Shown piece after piece: positions 950 through 10,284 of a stretch of 12,500 nt of DNA (its first letter is position 1; each line of letters starts with the position of its first letter). The stretch lies in contig JBAXOY010000091.1 in the NCBI GenBank assembly GCA_037133055.1, positions 1 to 12,500 on the forward strand. The letters run 5' to 3'. Both the position numbers and the translations under genes were made by a program. The notes under the pieces were generated by a model that ran no database searches, was not told the origin of the DNA, and saw only the letters and a list, made by a program, of their open reading frames with translations. Source of the DNA: Chlamydiota bacterium. GTDB taxonomy: Bacteria > Auribacterota > Tritonobacteria > UBA1439.

Positions 950-958
950 GCAAGGGCT

Positions 959-967
959 ATTGTATCA
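959..967 (-). promoter_or_regulatory. Extended -10 element (TG-a-TACAAT) for the glycosyltransferase
   Basis: Minus strand reads TGATACAAT, ending 9 nt upstream of the ATG at 949. Confidence 0.5.
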
Positions 968-996
968 CTTCTGTCCCCCCCGGATAACGCCCGACA

Positions 997-1005
997 TGCT
1001 ACACT
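997..1005 (+). promoter_or_regulatory. Extended -10 element (TG-c-TACACT) for the nucleotidyltransferase/SDR genes
   Basis: TGCTACACT about 60 nt upstream of ATG 1065, divergent from the GT4 promoter. Confidence 0.4.
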
Positions 1006-1064
1006 CTCGATGCGGGACATCAAGGCGCAGCGTCATGAGTGCGCATTGAAACGGAGAGGCGGAT

Positions 1065-1589
1065 ATGACAGGAAAAGATTTTTTTCGCGCGGTAGTCAAC
1101 GGGAAGAAAGATGTTATCGGCCTTATGCTGAAGCTCCTCAAGGACGCCTCGGCTGACTACTGTCTGGTGGGAGGCCTGGCCGTCAACGCATACGTGGAGC
1201 CGGTGGTGAGCCTGGACCTGGACATGGTGGTCATCTCGTCCGGCCTGGAGCCGCTGTGCCGCGCCGCGAGGGCGGCCGGTTTTAGCGTGGAGAGATTCGC
1301 GCGCAGTGTGAACTTGAGCATCCCGGAGTCTGACGTGCGAATCCAGCTTCAGACGGATTCCCGCTACCAGGAATTTATCCCCCGGGCGCGGACGGAGACT
1401 GTCCTTGGCTATACGATGCGCGTCGCTGCGATCGAGGACGTCCTGCAGGGGAAGCTCTGGGCGTATTCCGATGCGACCCGCCGCGGGAGCAAAAGGCAGA
1501 AAGACCTTGCCGATATCATGCGCCTGGTGGAGAGCCGTCCGTCCCTTGCGGCGATGCTGCCTGATGAAGTAACAAGGGCGCTGACATAA
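1065..1589 (+). CDS. Nucleotidyltransferase-fold protein (AbiEii/DUF6036-like), 174 aa
   Basis: YCLVGGLAVNAY...SLDLDMVV (GG plus DxD motif) and C-terminal K...R..KDLADI helix. SD-like GGAGAGG upstream. Confidence 0.75.
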   Translation: MTGKDFFRAVVNGKKDVIGLMLKLLKDASADYCLVGGLAVNAYVEPVVSLDLDMVVISSGLEPLCRAARAAGFSVERFARSVNLSIPESDVRIQLQTDSRYQEFIPRARTETVLGYTMRVAAIEDVLQGKLWAYSDATRRGSKRQKDLADIMRLVESRPSLAAMLPDEVTRALT

Positions 1590-1608
1590 GGTTGGACAGA
1601 GGCCATCC

Positions 1609-2439
1609 ATGAGAAATCTTGACGGGAAGATCGCCGTCGTGACCGGGGCGAGCCGGGGAGTGGGGCGTGGGATCGCCCTCGCGCTCGGGGAAGAGGGGGC
1701 GACCGTGTATGTTACGGGGCGAAGTTCCGGGAGGAGCAGAACGGAGGGCATCCCGGGGACGGTCGAGGAGACGGCCGCGGCCGTCACGGAGAGGGGAGGG
1801 GAAGGGATCCCGGTCCGCTGCGATCACACGGCGGATGCCGAGGTTGAAACGCTGTTCGAACGCGTGAAGGGGGAGCAGGGCCGGATCGACCTTCTGGTCA
1901 ACAATGTCTGGGGAGGATACGAGCGGCACGATCTCAAGGGTTTCCTCGCGCCATTCTGGGAGCAGCCGATGAGGCACTGGAACGGGATGTTCGTCGCCGG
2001 GGTCCGGGCGCACCTCGCGGCGAGCCGCCTCGCCGCGCCGCTGATGCTCCCGGCAAAAAAGGGGCTCATCATTCACACCACCGCGTGGGACCGGGAGAAG
2101 TATCTGGGAAACGTCTTCTACGATGTCGCGAAGGCCGCGGTGAACAGGATGGCGTTCGGAATGGCGCGGGATCTCCGGACGCACGGCATCGCGGTCGTGG
2201 CGCTCGCGCCGGGGTTCGTGAAGACCGAGCGGGTCATGGCCGCTTTTGCCGGCGCGGCCGAGGTACCCGAGGCGCTCGAGTCGCCCGAGTACGTCGGGCG
2301 AGCCGTCGTCGCCCTCGCCTCCGACCCGGGGGTTATGGAGAAGTCGGGCCGCGTTCTCACGGCGGGCGAATGCGCCGCGGAGTACGGATTCAGCGACATC
2401 GACGACAGGCGGCTCCCGCCGTTCCGGATAGAGCCCTGA
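1609..2439 (+). CDS. SDR family NAD(P)-dependent oxidoreductase (DHRS1-like)
   Basis: TGASRGVG glycine motif, IDLLVNN, catalytic YDVAK (YxxxK), APGFVKTE. GAGG RBS upstream. Confidence 0.95.
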   Translation: MRNLDGKIAVVTGASRGVGRGIALALGEEGATVYVTGRSSGRSRTEGIPGTVEETAAAVTERGGEGIPVRCDHTADAEVETLFERVKGEQGRIDLLVNNVWGGYERHDLKGFLAPFWEQPMRHWNGMFVAGVRAHLAASRLAAPLMLPAKKGLIIHTTAWDREKYLGNVFYDVAKAAVNRMAFGMARDLRTHGIAVVALAPGFVKTERVMAAFAGAAEVPEALESPEYVGRAVVALASDPGVMEKSGRVLTAGECAAEYGFSDIDDRRLPPFRIEP

Positions 2440-2499
2440 CACCCTGCTCATATATCCGGGGCCGGTTTCGTCGGGGAGGAGGGGGAGGCCTCCGGGTGG

Positions 2500-2631
2500 G
2501 AAGGGTGTGAAAGGTGCGAAGGGTGTGAAGGGTGTGAAGGGTGTGAAAGGTGCGAAGGGTGTGAAGGGTGTGAAGGGCGTGAAGGGTGTGAAGGGTAAGA
2601 AGGGTGAGAAGGGTGTGAAGGGTGTGAAGGG
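2500..2631 (+). repeat. 9-bp tandem array, consensus GAAGGGTGT, 14 full units plus a partial unit
   Basis: Units from 2500: GAAGGGTGT, GAAAGGTGC, GAAGGGTGT x3, GAAAGGTGC, GAAGGGTGT x2, GAAGGGCGT, GAAGGGTGT, GAAGGGTAA, GAAGGGTGA, GAAGGGTGT x2, then GAAGGG. 2500-2535 equals 2536-2571 (36-bp higher-order duplication). Ends 8 nt before ATG 2640. Confidence 0.98.
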
Positions 2632-2639
2632 GGGAGGGG

Positions 2640-3158
2640 ATGAAGAGTGAAGAGGGCGGAAAGGAAAAGGCGGCTTCGTCCTTTGAAGAACTGCACATCT
2701 ACCAGCGGGCGCGTGAGCTGACGAACGCGGTGTATGCGCTGACGCGCCAGGAGCCATTCAGTTGCGATCGCGGCCTGGTGGACCAGATTCGCCGCGCCTC
2801 CGTCTCGATCATGTCGAATATCGCCGAAGGGTTCGAGCGCGGCGCAAAGGCGGAGTTCATCCAGTTCCTCTACATCGCCAAGGGCTCCTGCGGGGAGGTC
2901 CGCGCACAGTTTCAGGTCGCGAGGGACCAGCAGTACCTCGACGCGGCCAACTATGACCGCGCGCACGACCTCGCCCGGCGCGTGAGCGGCATGATCTCCA
3001 ACTTCATCGCCCACCTCCAGAAAACGGAATATCAGGGTGAAAAGTACTCCCGTCCCCGACGCCAGCACGCCGCCGCCCAGCAGGAGAGGGTAGACGCGCT
3101 GCGCGCCGCGCAGCTCGCCAGCATTCATGCGCGGGAAGAGAGGGAGAAAACGTTATAA
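2640..3158 (+). CDS. Four-helix-bundle protein (23S rRNA intervening-sequence protein / Avd-like family)
   Basis: SFEELHIYQRARELTNAVY...DRGLVDQIRRASVSIMSNIAEGFERG...EFIQFLYIAKGSCGEVRAQ...DQQYL is the family signature (SxxxNIAEG, FLxIAKGSxxE). GGAGG RBS upstream. Confidence 0.93.
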   Translation: MKSEEGGKEKAASSFEELHIYQRARELTNAVYALTRQEPFSCDRGLVDQIRRASVSIMSNIAEGFERGAKAEFIQFLYIAKGSCGEVRAQFQVARDQQYLDAANYDRAHDLARRVSGMISNFIAHLQKTEYQGEKYSRPRRQHAAAQQERVDALRAAQLASIHAREEREKTL

Positions 3159-3200
3159 AGGTGAGAAGGGTGTGAAGGGTTAGAAGGGTGTGAAGGGTGG
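3156..3200 (+). repeat. 9-bp tandem array of the same family, 5 units, starting on the stop codon of the four-helix-bundle gene
   Basis: TAAAGGTGA, GAAGGGTGT, GAAGGGTTA, GAAGGGTGT, GAAGGGTGG. Confidence 0.95.
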
Positions 3201-3286
3201 CACGCTCAATCATGCCACGCCCCACGCCCGGCCCGTCGCTCTCCACCCATGTTTCGGCCGCGCCTCCGGTTTTCCGCTGTCGTGTT

Positions 3287-3320
3287 TCTCCCTTCTTACC
3301 CTTCACACCCTTCGCACTTC
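3287..3320 (-). repeat. Inverted copy of the 9-bp array, 3 units plus a partial unit, containing the dnaE2 stop codon
   Basis: Minus strand reads GAAGTGC GAAGGGTGT GAAGGGTAA GAAGGGAGA. The dnaE2 TGA is at 3305-3303. Confidence 0.9.
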
Positions 3321-6300
3321 GCGGGGTGTCGAGGCACACAGCCTCAGCCGGTCCACCTTGAGAACGACAACCCCTCCGTCGTCCTCCGCGATCCCCCGCA
3401 CCGCGAAGGCCCCCGGCGATTTCAGGAGATGCCCGAAGCGGGTGTATGCCGAGGGGAAGAGAACGGCCTCGAAGAGGGCGGTCGTGTCCTCGAACGTGAG
3501 GAACCGCATATACTCCCCCTTCGACGTCCTCACGCGCTTCGTGCAGACGATCCATCCGACGAGCTCGACGCGCCTTCCCGCATGGCGCCCGAGCCCGTCC
3601 GCCCTGATGAAGCCGGCGGGGAGCGCCGCCCCGACCGCCTCGATCGGGTGCCGGGAGACGTACGCGCCGAGGATTTCCCGCTCGAGCTCCATCCCGGTCC
3701 GCGTGTCGTAGTCCGGGATGCGTGGAACCGGAGATCCGGGGAGCCGGAGAGTCGGGGAGTCGGAGAAGGGAAGAAAAGGCGTGTGGGCGTGCGGGCGTGT
3801 GGGCGTGTGGGCGTGAGAGAAGATGGAAGGAGTGACGGCATGCGGGCGTGGCGGCGTGGCGGCGCTACGGAAGAGCGGAGATTCATCGGGACCGCGCCCG
3901 GCGGTGTCCATCAGATACAGTTCGCAGAGCATTTCGGGGCGGGATCCGCCGAGGCCGTCGCACGCGCCGCACAGAATGAGCCTCTCGGCCTCGCGCCTGT
4001 CGGGGGCGGCGCGGCGGCAGAAATCCTCGAGCGAGGCGAACGGTCCCTCCCTCCCCCGCGCCGCGACAATCCTCGCCGCCGTCTTTGACCCGAGGCCCCC
4101 CACCTGCGCGAGCCCCGCCTGGATCCAGCCGGGCCCCGCGCGAAACGCCGCAGCGCTCGCGTTCACGTGCGGCGGGAGGACCTTCAGCCCGAGACGGCGC
4201 GCCTCGTCGAGGTAGCCCTGCGTGTCGTAGAAGCCGCCCCCGTTCGAGAGGACCGCCGCCATGAACTCCGCCGGCCAGTGCGCCTTGAGGAACGCGACCT
4301 GCCACGAGAGGAGCGCGAACGAGGCGCTGTGCGCCTTGCAGAAGGCGTAGCCGGCGAAGCTCTCGATCTGGCGCCATATCTCGGAGGCCGCCTCCCCCGG
4401 TATGCCGCGCGCCGCCGCGGCGGCCTCGAACCTTGCCCGGGCCTCGTCCATGGCTTTGCGGGAGCGCATCGCGCCGCTCATCGCCCGCCTCAGGAGGTCG
4501 GCCTCCGCGAGCGTCATGCCGGCCACACAGTGCGCGACCCGCATCACGTCCTCCTGGTAGATCATCACGCCGTGCGTCTCGGCGAGGATCTTCTCCATGC
4601 CGGGGTGCAGGAATACCGTCTTTTCCCTTCCCCGGTGCCGGTCGATGTATTGCCGCATCATCCCGCTCTCCGCCACGCCGGGCCGGATGACGGAGCTCGC
4701 CGCGACGAGGTCCTGGTAGGTCGCGACGTCGAGTTTCCGGAGGAGCTGCCGCATCCCCGGGCTCTCGATATAGAAGCAGCCCATTGTCTTCCCCTCCCGG
4801 ATAAGCGACACGGTGGCATTGTCGCGGAAGAGCGTCCGAACGTTCCCGACCGCCGGCCGCGCTCCGCGGTTCGCCTCGATCATCGCGAGCGCGTCCTCGA
4901 GCACCGCGAGCGAGCGCTGGCCGAGGAGGTCCATCTTCACGAGCCCGAGTTCTCTCGCCGCGCGCATCTCGCACTGCGTGACCGTGACCCCCTTCGCGGC
5001 GGGCTCCAGCGGGATGACCCGCGTGAGCGGGAACGGCGCGACCACGATGCCGCCGGAGTGCACGCCGAGGTGACGCGGGAAACCGTCGATCGCTGCGGCG
5101 AGACGGATGACGGTGCGGAGCGGCTCGCGGGAAAGGGGGAGGTCGCGGCACTCGGGGAGGAGCTTCACCGCGGCCGGGATCGAGGCGGCGTCCGTGTGGG
5201 GGAGATGCCGGGTCCACCGGTCGATCTCGGCCGCCGGGACGCCCAGCGCCTTCCCGATCTCCCGCACGGCGGAGCGCGCGGTGAAGGTGACGTGCGTCGA
5301 GAGCATCGCCGTGCGGTCCGCGCCGTACTTCGCGTAGACGTAGTCGAGGATCTCGTCGCGCCGTTTCCAACTGAAGTCGAGGTCGATGTCCGGCGGGGAA
5401 TGCCGCGCGGGGTTCAGGAATCGCTCGAAATACAGGTTGTGCCGGAGCGGGTCCACGTGCGTGATCCCGAGGCAGTAGGCGGCGATGGAGCCCGCCGCCG
5501 ACCCGCGCCCGATCACGGGGACGCCGCGCCGGTTCGCCTCCCGGACGATGTCGTGGACGACGAGAAAGTAGGAGTCGAAGCCGAGCCGCCCGATCAGTTC
5601 GAGCTCGCGCCGCGCACGCGCGCGGGCGGCGAGCGCGGGCGCGCGGTAGCGCGCCGCAAGCCCTTCGAGGCAGAGGGCGCGGAGTCTGTCCCCCGCCGTC
5701 TCCCCGTCGGGCAGGTCGAGGCGGGGCAGGTGGAATCTCCCGAGGGGAAGTTCCAGTCTGCACTCCGCGGCGATGAGCCCCGCGTGCGCCGTCGCCTCGG
5801 GGAACCCGGAGAAGATACGCCGCATCTCCGCGCCGCTCCGCATCCATGCGCCGGGGGGGGGCAGCGCCCCCGGGGGGAGGGTCCCGACGGTCGCGCGCGT
5901 CCTGATAGCCGCGAGGACCATGTGCGCCTCGCGGCTATCAGGGGAGGCGAAGAGGACGGGGCCGGTGGCGACGGGCAGTACGCGCAGACGCGCGGCGAGG
6001 CGGGCGAGCGCGGCGATGCGCGGAGGGCCGTTGGCGGCGGGCACCTCGAGGTAGACGCCCGGGGGGGGCGCCCCGCGGGGGAGAAGCCGGAGCAGCCGGC
6101 CGGCGGGGAGTAGGATGAAGAGGTCGGGGTCTCCGGCGCTCAGGAGCGCGCGGAGGAGGGGAGGGAAGGCCGCATCCCCGCGCCCGGGCTCCGCGAAGAG
6201 CCTCTTCCCTGACAGGTGAAAGGAGGTCACCAGCCCGCAGAGCTTTTGATACCCCTGGAGGTTCCGGGCGAGGAGGACGAGCCGCGCATCTTCGCCCCGG

Positions 6301-6503
6301 AGCTCCGCTCCGATGATCGGCGTAATCCCCGCGGCCCGCGCGGCCAGATAGAACGGCACGGCGCCGTAGAGCCCGTTCGTGTCGGTGAGGGCAAGGGCTT
6401 TCATCCCGAGCGCGGAGGCGCGGGCCACGAGGTCGCCGATGTCGCTCGCCCCCTCGAGGAAAGAGTGGTTGCTGTGGCAGTGAAGATGGGCGAAGTTATC
6501 CAT
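3303..6503 (-). CDS. dnaE2: DNA polymerase III alpha subunit, error-prone DnaE2-type, 1066 aa
   Basis: PHP start HLHCHSNHSFLEG, GRGSAAGS, FERFLNP, catalytic PDIDLDF and KMDLLG, YAFCKAHS, HhH, C-terminal OB fold (RFLTFEDTT). No tau-binding C-terminal domain. PHP ligands degenerate (TDT, ATGPVLF). Follows lexA-dinB with an 8-bp overlap (ATGGATAA). Confidence 0.9.
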   Translation of the reverse strand: MDNFAHLHCHSNHSFLEGASDIGDLVARASALGMKALALTDTNGLYGAVPFYLAARAAGITPIIGAELRGEDARLVLLARNLQGYQKLCGLVTSFHLSGKRLFAEPGRGDAAFPPLLRALLSAGDPDLFILLPAGRLLRLLPRGAPPPGVYLEVPAANGPPRIAALARLAARLRVLPVATGPVLFASPDSREAHMVLAAIRTRATVGTLPPGALPPPGAWMRSGAEMRRIFSGFPEATAHAGLIAAECRLELPLGRFHLPRLDLPDGETAGDRLRALCLEGLAARYRAPALAARARARRELELIGRLGFDSYFLVVHDIVREANRRGVPVIGRGSAAGSIAAYCLGITHVDPLRHNLYFERFLNPARHSPPDIDLDFSWKRRDEILDYVYAKYGADRTAMLSTHVTFTARSAVREIGKALGVPAAEIDRWTRHLPHTDAASIPAAVKLLPECRDLPLSREPLRTVIRLAAAIDGFPRHLGVHSGGIVVAPFPLTRVIPLEPAAKGVTVTQCEMRAARELGLVKMDLLGQRSLAVLEDALAMIEANRGARPAVGNVRTLFRDNATVSLIREGKTMGCFYIESPGMRQLLRKLDVATYQDLVAASSVIRPGVAESGMMRQYIDRHRGREKTVFLHPGMEKILAETHGVMIYQEDVMRVAHCVAGMTLAEADLLRRAMSGAMRSRKAMDEARARFEAAAAARGIPGEAASEIWRQIESFAGYAFCKAHSASFALLSWQVAFLKAHWPAEFMAAVLSNGGGFYDTQGYLDEARRLGLKVLPPHVNASAAAFRAGPGWIQAGLAQVGGLGSKTAARIVAARGREGPFASLEDFCRRAAPDRREAERLILCGACDGLGGSRPEMLCELYLMDTAGRGPDESPLFRSAATPPRPHAVTPSIFSHAHTPTRPHAHTPFLPFSDSPTLRLPGSPVPRIPDYDTRTGMELEREILGAYVSRHPIEAVGAALPAGFIRADGLGRHAGRRVELVGWIVCTKRVRTSKGEYMRFLTFEDTTALFEAVLFPSAYTRFGHLLKSPGAFAVRGIAEDDGGVVVLKVDRLRLCASTPREVRRV
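3729..3867 (+). repeat. Two families of 8-bp tandem repeats inside the dnaE2 coding sequence
   Basis: CGGRGAGY-type x5 at 3729-3768 (CGGAGATC CGGGGAGC CGGAGAGT CGGGGAGT CGGAGAAG). GGGCGTGT-type x5 at 3777-3816. Degenerate CGGCATGC GGGCGTGG CGGCGTGG CGGCGCTA at 3836-3867. Confidence 0.85.
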
Positions 6504-7677
6504 GCGAAGGCGATATACGCAGCAGCGCCGTCCCCCCGGCGATCGCCCCGTCGCCGTACCGGTCCCGGATACGGTCCATCGCCGCGTAGAGGCTTTTGCG
6601 TCTGCCCCGGTCCGGGCCGCCGAACGGCAAGGCGGGCTGCCATCCGCTCCCGGCGAGGCCCGAGAGGCGGACGCCGACTAGGCGCAGCTTCAGCCTGCGC
6701 GTCCATGCGTTCCCGAGGAGTTCCCCGGCGGCCGAGAAGACCTCTCCGTCCATGTCGGTCGGCTCGCGGAGCGTGACGGAGCGGGTGACGGTCTGGAAAT
6801 CCGCGTAGCGGAGCTTGAGCGTCACGGTCCGCGCCTGAGTCCCCGCCCCGCGGAGAGACCGGCAGGCGCTTCCCGCGAGCTTCCCGAGTTCGGCCAGTAT
6901 CCTCTCCCGGTCGAGGATGTCCCCGGGAAAGGTGACCTCGCGGCTCACGGACTTCGACCCGGCGGGCGACGTCACCGGGGATGCGTCTTCGCCCCGCGCC
7001 GCCCGCGCCAGCCACGCCCCGGCCGGGCCGAGCGCGGCGGTGAGTATCCGCTCGCCGAGCAGGCGGAGATCGCCGACCGTGGCGGCGCCGAGGAGGCGGA
7101 GCCGCTCCCCCGCGCGGGGACCGACGCCGGGGATGGACCGGACGGGGAGCGGCGCGAGGAATGCCTCTTCGCGTCCGGGGAGCACCCGGCAGATGCCGTT
7201 CGGCTTTGCGCAGGCCGAGGCGATCCGCGCCACGAGCTTGTTCGATGCGACGCCGATGGATGCGTCGAGCTTCAGGTCCCTCCTGATCTCGTGGTGGATC
7301 CGCTCCGCGGCGGAGAACGGGTGACCGAAGAGGGCGCGGCAGCCGGTCATGTCGAGGTAGGCCTCCTCCATGGAGAGGGGCTCCACGTCGGGCGTGAAGC
7401 GCTCGAGCGTCTGGAAGAGCCCGGCCGATACGGCCGCGTAGTCGCCGAAGCGGAGGGGGAGGAAGACGCAGTCGGGGCAGAGCCTCTTCGCCCGGGCGAG
7501 CGGCATCGCGGCGCGGACGCCCCGCCGGCGCGCCTCGTAGGAGGCCGAGGAGACCACCCCGCGGCGGGCCGGGTCGCCCCCGACGGCGACCGGGCGCCCC
7601 TTCAGCCACGGCCGCCGGAGCAGCTCGACCGAGACGAAGAACGCGTCCACGTCCAGGTGCAGTATGACGCGCTCCAT
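6496..7677 (-). CDS. dinB: Y-family DNA polymerase IV (DinB)-like protein, possibly catalytically impaired
   Basis: ILHLDVDAFFVSVE, SSASYEARRRGV, LSMEEAYLD, KPNG, IPGVG, TVTLKLRYADF, RLVGVRLS, clamp-motif-like QPALPF and C-terminal MDRIRDRYG. Start set at ATG 7677 (AAGGA 8 nt upstream) rather than 7698. Confidence 0.92.
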   Translation of the reverse strand: MERVILHLDVDAFFVSVELLRRPWLKGRPVAVGGDPARRGVVSSASYEARRRGVRAAMPLARAKRLCPDCVFLPLRFGDYAAVSAGLFQTLERFTPDVEPLSMEEAYLDMTGCRALFGHPFSAAERIHHEIRRDLKLDASIGVASNKLVARIASACAKPNGICRVLPGREEAFLAPLPVRSIPGVGPRAGERLRLLGAATVGDLRLLGERILTAALGPAGAWLARAARGEDASPVTSPAGSKSVSREVTFPGDILDRERILAELGKLAGSACRSLRGAGTQARTVTLKLRYADFQTVTRSVTLREPTDMDGEVFSAAGELLGNAWTRRLKLRLVGVRLSGLAGSGWQPALPFGGPDRGRRKSLYAAMDRIRDRYGDGAIAGGTALLRISPSHG

Positions 7678-7710
7678 AGTAAATATCCTTTTCACCACGG
7701 CAAGAATTGG

Positions 7711-8319
7711 TTACCGGTATTTCCTGAGCACCGCGACGACCACCCCCTGGATCGTCACCTCGGACGCGGGGAGGACGATCGGATCGAGGGCCGGGTTCGC
7801 GGGGATGAGCGTGACCATCCCCTTTTCCTGCCGGAACTTCTTCAGCGTCGCCTCCTCGTTGCGGATGAGGGCGATCACCGTCTCGCCGTTCCGGGCGGTG
7901 CGCCGTTTCTCGACGACGACGTAGTCCCCGTCGCGGATCCCCTCGCCGATCATCGAGTCCCCCCGGACCCGGAGGACGAAGGCGCTCCCCTTCCCGGCGA
8001 ACTCCTCCGGCACAACCATCGTCTCCCGGTCGGCGAGCGCCTCGATCGGCCTGCCGGCGGCGATCATGCCGAGGAGCGGGAGCTCGATGGCGGCGAGCCG
8101 GATATCCCCCGCCGGGACAAGCTCGATCGACCGGCTGCGGTGCTCCTCCCGGCTGATGGCGCCCTTTTTCTCGAGGTTGACGAGGTGTGTGTGCACCGTG
8201 GCGGGGGATCCGAGGCCGAACCTCTTCCCGATCTCACCGATGCTCGGGGCGTAGCCCCTCCGCGCGATGAACTCGTCCAGGTAGTCCAGTATCTGCCGCT
8301 GCCGCCGTGTAAGATGCAT
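7711..8319 (-). CDS. lexA: SOS repressor LexA, 202 aa
   Basis: LTRRQRQILDYL...GYAPSIGEI...SPATVHTHL winged HTH, Ala-Gly cleavage site IAAGRP, catalytic Ser GDSMI and Lys ATLKKF. Start at ATG 8319 with AGGAGGT SD at 8330-8324. Confidence 0.97.
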   Translation of the reverse strand: MHLTRRQRQILDYLDEFIARRGYAPSIGEIGKRFGLGSPATVHTHLVNLEKKGAISREEHRSRSIELVPAGDIRLAAIELPLLGMIAAGRPIEALADRETMVVPEEFAGKGSAFVLRVRGDSMIGEGIRDGDYVVVEKRRTARNGETVIALIRNEEATLKKFRQEKGMVTLIPANPALDPIVLPASEVTIQGVVVAVLRKYR

Positions 8320-8353
8320 GGGGACCTCCTTTCGGCGTCCGTTGCCCAGTATC

Positions 8354-8382
8354 AGGATAGGCGAATAAAAAGCGAAAATCAA
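8354..8382 (-). promoter_or_regulatory. Sigma70-type promoter of the lexA operon with a candidate LexA operator in the spacer
   Basis: Minus strand: TTGATT (8382-8377), 17 bp, TATCCT (8359-8354). The spacer TTCGCTTTTTATTCGCC is a TTCGC direct repeat with an 11-bp period. Confidence 0.7.
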
Positions 8383-8403
8383 GGGCAAAAAAACATAACT
8401 GCT

Positions 8404-8445
8404 CAGAAGCCAGAATTCAGAAGTCAGGAGTCAGGAGTTAGAATG
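8404..8445 (+). repeat. 7-bp tandem array, consensus CAGRAGT, 6 units
   Basis: CAGAAGC CAGAATT CAGAAGT CAGGAGT CAGGAGT TAGAATG. The last units supply GGAG and the ATG at 8443. Confidence 0.9.
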
Positions 8446-8571
8446 AGGACTTCAGCGACAGCATTTAAGGACTTGGGATACGGCGATGTTTCCGAGTTAA
8501 CGCGGTTACTCGAAGAGGTCAGCACTCTACTGGAAACTAGTTCGCGATCCATTCTGGATTCTGGCTTCTGA
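8443..8571 (+). pseudogene. Internally deleted four-helix-bundle (IVP family) gene, 42 aa
   Basis: MRTSATAFKDL-GYGDVSELTRLLEEVSTLLETSSRSILDSGF*. The N-terminal FxDL start is fused directly to the DLGY...LEEVSxLL last helix, and the central NIAEG region is missing. Confidence 0.7.
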
Positions 8572-8586
8572 CTTCTGACTACCTGA
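8551..8586 (-). repeat. Inverted 7-bp array, reverse complement of the 8404-8445 array
   Basis: Plus strand ATTCTGG ATTCTGG CTTCTGA CTTCTGA CTACCTGA. Contains the TGA stop (8569-8571) of the remnant ORF. Confidence 0.9.
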
Positions 8587-8616
8587 GTAGTTGCAAAAAA
8601 TACCATGCGACGGAAG

Positions 8617-10014: not shown

Positions 10015-10284
10015 ATGATGAGACCGGTTCTGCTGTGCGCTCTTCTCATCTCGGCGGTGGGGACCGCCGGCTGCATCAACAAGGGGCCGTACTACATCTA
10101 CGGCGACTACATCGAGGAGCACGGGGAGGGAGAGTACGAGGACGCGGACGAGTACCCGCCCGAGGAGACCGCCACGGAAGAGGAACACGACTGGGATCAC
10201 GACAAGAATTGCGACAAGGAACACAAGGATCGCGATGCTGCGAAGCCGAAGCCGGAGGCGGCGGGCGCGAAGAAGATGATCTGA
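10015..10284 (+). CDS. Small acidic putative lipoprotein (start could also be 10018)
   Basis: MMRPVLLCALLISAVGTAG-C signal peptide with lipobox-like TAGC and D/E/Y-rich low-complexity body. AAGGAGG SD directly upstream. Confidence 0.7.
   Translation: MMRPVLLCALLISAVGTAGCINKGPYYIYGDYIEEHGEGEYEDADEYPPEETATEEEHDWDHDKNCDKEHKDRDAAKPKPEAAGAKKMI

Follow-up and report, generated by a model that had tools for sequence, protein, structure and literature searches.

Four-helix-bundle genes between inverted tandem-repeat arms: candidate cassettes and a derived IS66-type miniature element beside a lexA-dinB-dnaE2 operon

The window analyzed here (12,500 nucleotides of contig JBAXOY010000091.1; genome G000) contains lexA (7711-8319), dinB for DNA polymerase IV (6496-7677), and a gene for a second DnaE (3303-6503; dnaE2-like, as inferred from the operon context), all of them host genes on the reverse strand and outside the elements described below. 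At both ends of this operon lie four-helix-bundle sequences set in short tandem-repeat arrays, which the original prediction took for one three-array architecture, possibly a mobile unit, bracketing an SOS mutagenesis cassette. This raises the question of what such units of gene and arrays are, how they reach their sites, and whether their position around the SOS operon has any meaning.

The intact gene and the miniature element

The gene at 2640-3158 (forward strand) is intact and encodes a four-helix-bundle protein of 172 aa; the product matches TIGR02436 (E 8e-34, 116 bits; curated cut-off 24) and PF05635 (E 6e-35, 120 bits; cut-off 33.8). Its structural model (pLDDT 85.9) has four long helices like Xcc0516, supplemented by a fifth, C-terminal helix specific to the clade, and superimposes on 2GSC with an rmsd of 1.4-1.6 and a TM-score, by target, of 0.85-0.88. 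The solved relatives 2GSC and 2RLD have five chains each, and by analogy the protein would form a homopentameric ring.

The gene is preceded by a 9-mer array (2494-2631, forward strand; 15.3 copies of GAAGGGTGT) that ends at a G-rich ribosome-binding site, reaching this site and the ATG at 2640; the 5' arm of the orthologous locus (L057) in a sister genome has only about 4.5 copies. Downstream follow a direct array of the 5' type (3160-3199, forward strand), a short CCACGCC repeat remnant (3211-3229, forward strand; drawn from a repeat call at 3215-3229 and the sequence) between both 9-mer arrays, and an inverted 9-mer array (3290-3317, reverse strand; 28 nt, 93% complementary). The latter provides the TGA stop codon (3303-3305) of the convergent dnaE2, and represents a 3' arm that has been displaced from the cassette, or else an orphan arm located at the dnaE2 stop. 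In the predicted fold of 2494-3317 the outer arms pair and enclose the ORF in a long stem, and the region 3150-3330 is also predicted to fold (z -4.3).

Homologous loci at varied sites carry the same forward 5' arm (29/35) and an inverted arm 3' of the stop (30/35); a direct array after the stop is atypical, being found at one of the 35, namely the ortholog L057. Since the locus departs from the usual layout, lies opposite a convergent gene and is common to the sister genome, it is not a recent insertion. It is flanked by protein-coding genes on both sides and no rRNA gene; a genome-wide scan for ends revealed no IS66 end pair at this locus, and 8-bp target duplications were found at 0/20 loci of its clade. 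One 201-nt contig of depth 2 from an RNA run lies within the gene, and is too weak to show transcription.

The second locus is a 200-bp miniature inverted-repeat transposable element (MITE) of IS66 type (8395-8594, forward strand), derived from a 444-bp four-helix-bundle cassette on C135. It is bounded by 12-bp terminal inverted repeats, on the left ATAACTGCTCAG (8395-8406, forward strand; family majority GTAACTGCTCAG, the ISDge4 end in the accessible part of PMC12898284) and on the right at 8583-8594 (reverse strand), each with one base change relative to the family ends, and by an 8-bp target duplication whose left copy AAAAAAAC (8387-8394) and right copy AAAAAATA (8595-8602) match at six of eight positions. 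These repeats and the duplication had been overlooked in the original prediction. Inside lie a 5' heptamer arm of the CAGRAGT family (8403-8443, forward strand) and an inverted heptamer 3' arm (8551-8580, reverse strand) that overlaps the stop codon, with 29 nt pairing at 79% complementarity, and the element is predicted to fold into a single long hairpin (z -5.1). A remnant of 42 codons (8443-8571, forward strand) fuses the gene's first 11 codons to its final third without a frameshift, through a deletion of 237 nt at the microhomology AGGACTTGG (8468-8476). An HMM search of the remnant gave no match; over 33 aa it shares 88% identity with a PF05635 protein, and its source is the full gene on C135, by in-frame deletion of the gene-bearing cassette. 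Both genes thus belong to the family as predicted, but the architecture proposed for them is not a common one: the second locus has just the 5' arm and the one inverted arm over its stop, and at the first locus the array thought to overlap the stop codon merely abuts it (TAA, 3156-3158).

MITE matches were found at 35 loci of this genome, none with a transposase, and the 237-nt deletion junction is common to 15 of 24 copies. Flank identity is 0.84 at 8 bp and 0.22-0.33 at other lengths; duplications matching at 7/8 or better occur in 16/25 copies (eight perfect; null mean 0.07), as well as in 9/13 copies in relatives, with the window copy at 6/8 and the full C135 copy at 5/8. A bias of copies toward the sense orientation is not significant (15 sense vs 6 antisense, p 0.08). 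In the contigs of the read runs searched, no junction skipped the whole MITE or the whole cassette, and four runs showed no exact unoccupied version of the MITE site in this window. A gutted relative's cassette has spread through the genome with the ends and the 8-base duplications of a known transposon family.

The family ends match those of ISDge4, an active member of IS66/ISBst12, at 12/12 and 11/12 positions, and ISDge4 generates an 8-bp repeat (PMC12898284, as far as its accessible text goes). Genome G007 has 23 MITE matches and an IS66 element with GTAA-N4-TCAG ends, which differ from the MITE ends in the middle four bases. A search of G000 (draft, 92% complete) for an IS66 transposase was negative, and no element with exactly the MITE's ends was detected with the PF03050 profile in G000, 40 relatives, the class and five further genomes, or with an end-pattern scan of five relatives and viral contigs (the latter with 0 matches). 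The 200-bp element is likely a gutted cassette moved in trans by an IS66 transposase of the ISBst12 group; the suggestion that other machinery acts in trans is supported at the second locus, by ends and duplications. As a general vehicle of cassettes IS66 was rejected, such ends being present in merely 3/77 relatives of the C135 gene (L135, L173, L190). Duplications of 8 bp at arm boundaries showed no excess (0/20; 7/65 vs a null of 5.5), in a test that is low-powered at ordinary cassettes because the arm ends are fuzzy. Repeats of the GTAAGCT series are graded from deleted gene through fused arms to single arm.

Arms, empty sites and dispersed arrays

Arms occur beside 61/77 relatives of the C135 gene vs 1/175 control ORFs, and inverted arms, family-wide, at 50/78 genes vs 0/121 control ORFs; 28/78 family loci have no arms at the threshold used, and arms are also lacking at the C49 gene, which lies beside a tRNA. 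The repeat unit tracks the protein clade: arm similarity is 0.41 for proteins more than 60% identical in different genomes vs 0.02 for paralogs within one genome, a signal that comes from the pairs above 60% identity, a class overrepresented owing to the choice of 13 genomes for their C135-like gene. Such tracking is also expected from simple co-inheritance. Of 22 cassette loci in relatives, 13 correspond in G000 to a direct junction of both flanks, with the gene absent (12 distinct empty sites, all 12 between co-oriented genes), and where empty sites carry repeats the unit is unlike that of the relative's cassette at 5/6. Arm enrichment, the family membership of the remnant and the empty sites support the idea of gene and arrays as a mobile unit; none of the three outcomes that the original prediction named as refuting it was obtained.

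GxxExxY genes share the same arm layout, which therefore is not specific to the four-helix-bundle protein; of eight PF01797 (Y1/HUH) matches, just two had gene calls, both without such arrays within 300 bp. Our literature search found no paper describing the cassette, and repeat arms at these genes are unmentioned in the accessible portions of PMC5524665, PMC8700078, PMC3936711 and PMC3281130.

The tandem arrays noted at both loci and inside dnaE2 are real. The genome contains 209 repeat arrays in total, and the count in its first 60 contigs is above chance (131 vs 0 in block-shuffled DNA). Orphan 9-mer arrays occur in G000 alone among nine class genomes, as does the cognate gene, and all of those that could be classified (11/11) have sense orientation. 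The largest family is TTTGGGA (73 arrays), for which none of the four TIGR02436 matches in G000 is the cognate gene; no ordinary gene among those listed is flanked by both TTTGGGA arms. The notion that arrays have four to five units because a pentamer needs five sub-sites is unsupported, since four G-tracts explain the TTTGGGA arrays and 9-mer arrays span 3-15 units.

Competing explanations

Three in-frame 8-mer arrays (3713-3766, 3778-3815 and 3845-3864, reverse strand) encode part of the variable linker of DnaE2 before the OB fold, and their units resemble arms of other four-helix-bundle clades (L215, L225, L228). With the bracket formed by the two loci, and with another fused-arm repeat in the lexA leader of G007, they favor the view of the original prediction that loci and arrays are one SOS-linked module or composite element. 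This is largely refuted and now highly improbable: the operon lies between the same upstream genes in G002 and G007 with neither element, G003 keeps lexA-dinB with neither, dnaE2 of G002 adjoins a glycosyltransferase gene with no cassette, and the linker inserts of relatives are different or absent (in an alignment that leaves out the G002 row). The elements also differ in repeat unit and protein clade (35% identity), and the 209 arrays and 35 MITE loci are genome-wide. Locus 1 and the MITE are likely two unrelated insertions, and the SOS neighborhood is likely chance.

The explanation we favor, and hold to be somewhat probable, is that the cassettes are four-helix-bundle genes between inverted tandem-repeat arms, gained and lost at gene junctions and likely selfish, whose arms would pair into a long RNA stem, the predicted binding site of the ring-shaped protein, the 200-bp element likely being moved in trans by IS66. 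Arm enrichment, clade-specific units, empty sites, the common deletion junction, terminal inverted repeats and 8-bp duplications are its observed part. The long RNA stem may allow the insert to be tolerated within, or excised from, the host transcript, by analogy with RNase III acting on 23S rRNA intervening sequences; the pentamer may bind its own arms, as Avd does an RNA stem-loop; and orphan arrays, those of dnaE2 included, would be left-over or seeded arms. A more far-reaching version, which we put forward tentatively, is an undescribed class of selfish elements in which each clade's pentameric ring recognizes its own 7-9-mer arm as RNA or ssDNA and causes both cassettes and single arms to insert at the stop codons in operons that are transcribed.

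Rather unlikely, though less so than the other alternatives, is that the arms are cis-acting RNA or DNA structures (hairpins, G-quadruplexes) that grow by slippage and spread by recombination and gene transfer, with the protein as a passenger. Most TTTGGGA arrays have four G-tracts (56/73), as for the GGGNATC repeats in the accessible text of PMC4692102, the MITE spread in its deleted form, with no intact gene in cis, array length varies from 15 copies here to about 4.5 in L057, the layout recurs at GxxExxY genes, and the Coxiella ORF seems expendable (PMC4990558, in the part available). This would leave unexplained why the same unit accompanies one protein clade across many phyla, and why 9-mer arrays are limited to the genome with the cognate gene and have a single polarity. 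An Avd-like route, in which cassettes and single arms insert via an RNA intermediate, through a reverse transcriptase that the protein recruits in trans while bound to the cassette RNA, appears improbable. The fold is common to Avd and the four-helix-bundle family (PMC10053308, accessible text), with a TM-score of 0.86 between our model and Avd 4DWL, Avd pentamers bind an RNA stem-loop (bioRxiv 2023.10.23.563531, accessible text), and the strict sense polarity and the sites at transcribed junctions fit. Identity to Avd, however, is 12-14%, the Avd profile NF033474 scores 15.5 against a cut-off of 80, the window holds no reverse transcriptase, and PF00078 is matched in 0/1 (G000) and 2/9 class genomes vs TIGR02436 in 8/9 of the genomes searched; furthermore, the MITE signature is of the DDE transposase type.

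Relation to known systems

The 23S rRNA intervening sequences of Coxiella and Leptospira encode the same protein family (S23p), are sporadically distributed, and have an ORF in a stem of terminal inverted repeats with tandem heptamers before the start codon; in that of Coxiella, heptamer repeats precede the ORF and RNase III cleaves a stem of 28 bp (PMC4990558, in part). The cassettes described here differ in lying at protein-coding operon junctions, in their clade-specific 7-9-mer arms, in the dispersed orphan arms, and in the IS ends of one family. MITEs and MICs of the IS66 ISBst12 group likewise have ISDge4-like 12-bp ends and an 8-bp duplication (PMC12898284), and, by the definitions in PMC3129680, lack a transposase and occur as many copies with one deletion (both sources in their accessible parts); the interior here is a four-helix-bundle cassette with heptamer arms instead of transposase DNA, and such ends are absent from locus 1 and from 74/77 relatives.

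The G-rich heptamer repeats of Xanthomonas and Nostoc are similarly dispersed intergenic arrays, each with about four units, that lie close to starts and stops and in some cases form inverted pairs, and in the available text are tied to no gene and generally not found with mobile elements (PMC4692102). The arrays described here fall into many coexisting unit families, several of which correspond to arms of a four-helix-bundle clade. Cyanobacterial STRR are comparable dispersed repeats that we group with these heptamers. REPIN/RAYT systems also have a single gene between inverted repeats, and gene-less repeats dispersed between genes, whereas the cassette has no HUH transposase and has tandem arrays as arms in place of palindromic REPs. 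Avd of diversity-generating retroelements (4DWL, 8UB7) shares the four-helix-bundle fold, and the solved members of the family are pentamers; here, no template repeat or variable repeat accompanies the gene.

The SOS connection is unimportant. If the tentative version above were true, the protein would be the source of long-unexplained heptamer repeat families, the rRNA intervening sequences would be a special case that landed in 23S rRNA, and one arm register, which differs from an IS66 end at one base, would allow transposases to capture cassettes (L190). The ISDge4 transposase, with proven activity, has the same ends as the mini-element (PMC12898284, accessible text), and the clade-specific arms would serve as matched cognate and non-cognate ligands. 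The cassettes tie together the S23p proteins of rRNA intervening sequences, dispersed heptamer repeats, and patchy four-helix-bundle genes in operons, three things left unexplained in the accessible parts of the papers on them.

The four-helix-bundle cassette beside dnaE2

The ORF at 2640-3158 encodes the expected TIGR02436/PF05635 protein, as confirmed by profile searches; its structure model, a four-helix bundle with one additional (fifth) helix, resembles Xcc0516 (2GSC) and BT_0352 (2RLD), with a weaker match to Avd (4DWL, 8UB7). Every array named in the original prediction was recovered with Tandem Repeats Finder and a repeat finder. The single architecture proposed for this locus (locus 1, 2494-3317) and for the remnant-bearing locus beside lexA (locus 2, 8395-8594) had to be abandoned: locus 2 consists of an arm, the remnant and an inverted arm, whereas locus 1 has an extra direct arm (in the order arm, gene, direct arm, and an inverted arm that supplies the dnaE2 stop).

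Relatives of locus 1 were found at 48 metagenome loci, of which 35 were scored (excluded were seven partial hits, three with short flanks and three duplicates). A forward 9-mer arm is located 5' of the gene in 29 of the 35, an inverted arm lies 3' of the stop in 30, and both are present in 25; a direct 3' arm was seen in one, the orthologous locus L057. Neighbouring genes differ among these relatives. Locus 1 is a cassette, i.e. a gene between a forward and an inverted arm, without IS ends. Its gene was not found in the eight other genomes of the class at E 1e-30, and the 9-mer array pattern gave no match in them vs 76 overlapping matches in the source genome, G000.

The gap between the glycosyltransferase gene and dnaE2 (950-3300) is a variable cargo slot, and the cassette is one among its occupants; the two genes meet directly in the relative G002, and the gap contains other genes in G001. 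In the window, the slot holds an AbiEii-like nucleotidyltransferase gene (1065-1589; weak Pfam hit), an SDR gene and the cassette.

Arms, clades and empty sites

Arms are linked to protein clade across the family. Among 80 relatives, from many phyla, of the full-length protein on contig C135 of G000 (77 scored), inverted arms were found at 61 vs 1 of 175 control ORFs, and nearly all armed loci carry one heptamer family. The predicted enrichment of arms beside four-helix-bundle genes was also borne out in a family HMM-picked set of 90 loci (inverted arms at 50 of 78 scored vs 0 of 121 controls). The repeat unit tracks the protein, with arm similarity high only above 60% identity (Mantel r 0.61), a class inflated by 13 genomes selected for a C135-like gene; among paralogs within one genome it is near zero. 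Co-inheritance alone predicts such a pattern of unit and clade. REPIN/RAYT systems and the cyanobacterial STRR repeats are among the closest comparisons.

An armless four-helix-bundle gene of G000 (C49:2825-3145) adjoins an apparent tRNA gene; its orthologs occupy the same position in five genomes (G001, G002, G004, G005, G008) with full or partial arms, and this clade therefore looks vertically kept. Two GxxExxY genes (C111:335-661 and C122:7590-7913), presumably encoding nucleases, share the inverted-arm layout of the cassettes, here built from 10-mers, and are candidates for a second cassette type or a trans-acting partner.

Empty sites, another prediction, do exist: for 13 of 22 cassette loci of class relatives, the two flanks directly adjoin each other in G000 and the gene is missing. 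These correspond to 12 sites, all of them between genes co-oriented with the cassette. A strong orphan array (an arm without gene) is present at 4/12 sites vs 149/1780 junctions (p 0.014), or, by a looser score, at 6/12 vs 231/1780. The orphan unit is usually unlike that of the relative's cassette; these junctions are therefore reused. A census of 18 units in G000, using our own gene caller (2542 genes), gave 209 arrays, 187 of them outside genes or at gene edges, 22 with the unit of the locus 2 element and four within 300 bp of a TIGR02436 match. Orphan arrays retain cassette polarity (5'-type arms after stops, 3'-type arms before starts), and within a GTAAGCT series there are loci with the gene deleted, others with the arms fused and others with one arm alone. 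TTTGGGA arrays number 73 in G000 (mostly four G-tracts; 14 in frame within called genes), and matches to this pattern range from 0 to 232 across class genomes.

The mini-transposon beside lexA

Locus 2 is a mini-transposon, a 200-bp MITE (MITEs and MICs are defined in the accessible text of PMC3129680) with CAGRAGT arms. The assignment of its remnant (8443-8571) to the four-helix family was upheld: the remnant gave no HMM hit, but has 88% identity to one PF05635 protein, matched in a search against longer proteins. Its full-length form lies on C135, in a 444-bp cassette, and many deleted copies were also found (tblastn). Sharp common ends are shared by 35 loci (blastn), 25 of them scorable at both ends; flank identity is maximal at 8 bp (0.84 vs 0.22-0.33), and an 8-bp duplication of at least 7/8 was found in 16 of the 25 (shuffled pairings average 0.07). 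In 15 of 24 deleted copies the same 237 nt have been lost, in frame and at a 9-nt microhomology, and the others show five different junctions; amplification therefore came after deletion and required an enzyme in trans.

Matches were found in G003 (20), G006 (11), G007 (23) and, as one partial match, in G005; none were found in G001, G002 or G004. In relatives, 14 loci yielded 13 copies with both ends complete, nine of them flanked by duplications, and loose ends occur at the same boundaries in independent assemblies. In two copies (L032 in G006, L106 in G007), another palindromic repeat has inserted within or next to the element.

The ends of the MITE family agree with those of ISDge4, an IS66/ISBst12 element observed to transpose with an 8-bp repeat (PMC12898284, in part). 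PF03050 had no match in G000, and a 1842-bp IS66 element in G007 (ends GTAA-N4-TCAG) has middle bases unlike the MITE's, so that no cognate transposase copy was found in these two places, and membership of the transposase in IS66/ISBst12 is therefore what we infer. Among the 77 scored C135-protein relatives, IS66-type ends with duplications occur only in L135, L173 and L190. The last, a Nostoc cassette (about 2460-2890), has a perfect 8-bp duplication and IS66-like ends formed by the heptamer array itself but for one change, which suggests that arms can turn into transposon ends.

The SOS operon and a proposed mechanism

The original prediction tied both elements to lexA-dinB-dnaE2. LexA and DinB score above their profile cut-offs and DnaE under both equivalog cut-offs; the dnaE2 label hence rests on operon context and a second DnaE-like match in relatives. 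The 8-mers within dnaE2 resemble arms of clades at L215, L225 and L228; the linker around them is short in G001, and G003 and G007 have other inserts there. The SOS link was not sustained: DUF362-lexA-dinB-dnaE2 is kept in G002 and G007, and lexA-dinB in G003 (dnaE2 end on another contig), without MITE or four-helix gene. With two unrelated elements involved, in a 3-Mb genome that carries 209 arrays and 35 MITE loci, the bracketing of the operon is best read as chance.

Upstream of lexA, a TTCGC-N6-TTCGC direct repeat (8361-8376, minus strand), conserved in G002, G003 and G007 and with only one other strict match in G000, is a likely LexA operator; the MITE insertion is about 18 bp away. In G007 (L233), a fused-arm ACAAATG/CATTTG heptamer palindrome (about 2560-2640) lies between the putative LexA box and the lexA start, and dnaE2 (4774-6813) appears internally deleted (residues about 234-598 missing in the tblastn match). 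An acidic, lipoprotein-like 89-aa ORF at 10015-10284 had no Pfam hit and is partly conserved in G002.

In the literature covered (the protein, heptamer repeats, IS66, intervening sequences and insertion cassettes; few subscription journals, no supplements), neither repeat-armed cassettes outside rRNA nor IS66 derivatives of repeat-armed four-helix-bundle cassettes were described. The accessible portions of earlier reports describe arrays of such short repeats without a gene link (PMC4692102), four-helix-bundle genes within cas operons (PMC3936711) and the homology to Avd (PMC10053308).

No enzyme for primary insertion was identified; a reverse transcriptase was not found in G000 and is present in two of nine class genomes. 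The signatures of mobility and the link between arms and clades are observed, and long stems are predicted by folding (z -5.1 and -4.3). As far as the available text of each report goes, the Coxiella intervening sequence has heptamer repeats and a 28-bp stem that RNase III cuts (PMC4990558), and all five protomers of Avd bind an RNA stem-loop (bioRxiv 2023.10.23.563531). By analogy with these two systems, the protein ring would bind the stem, and the stem would make the insert tolerable to the host.
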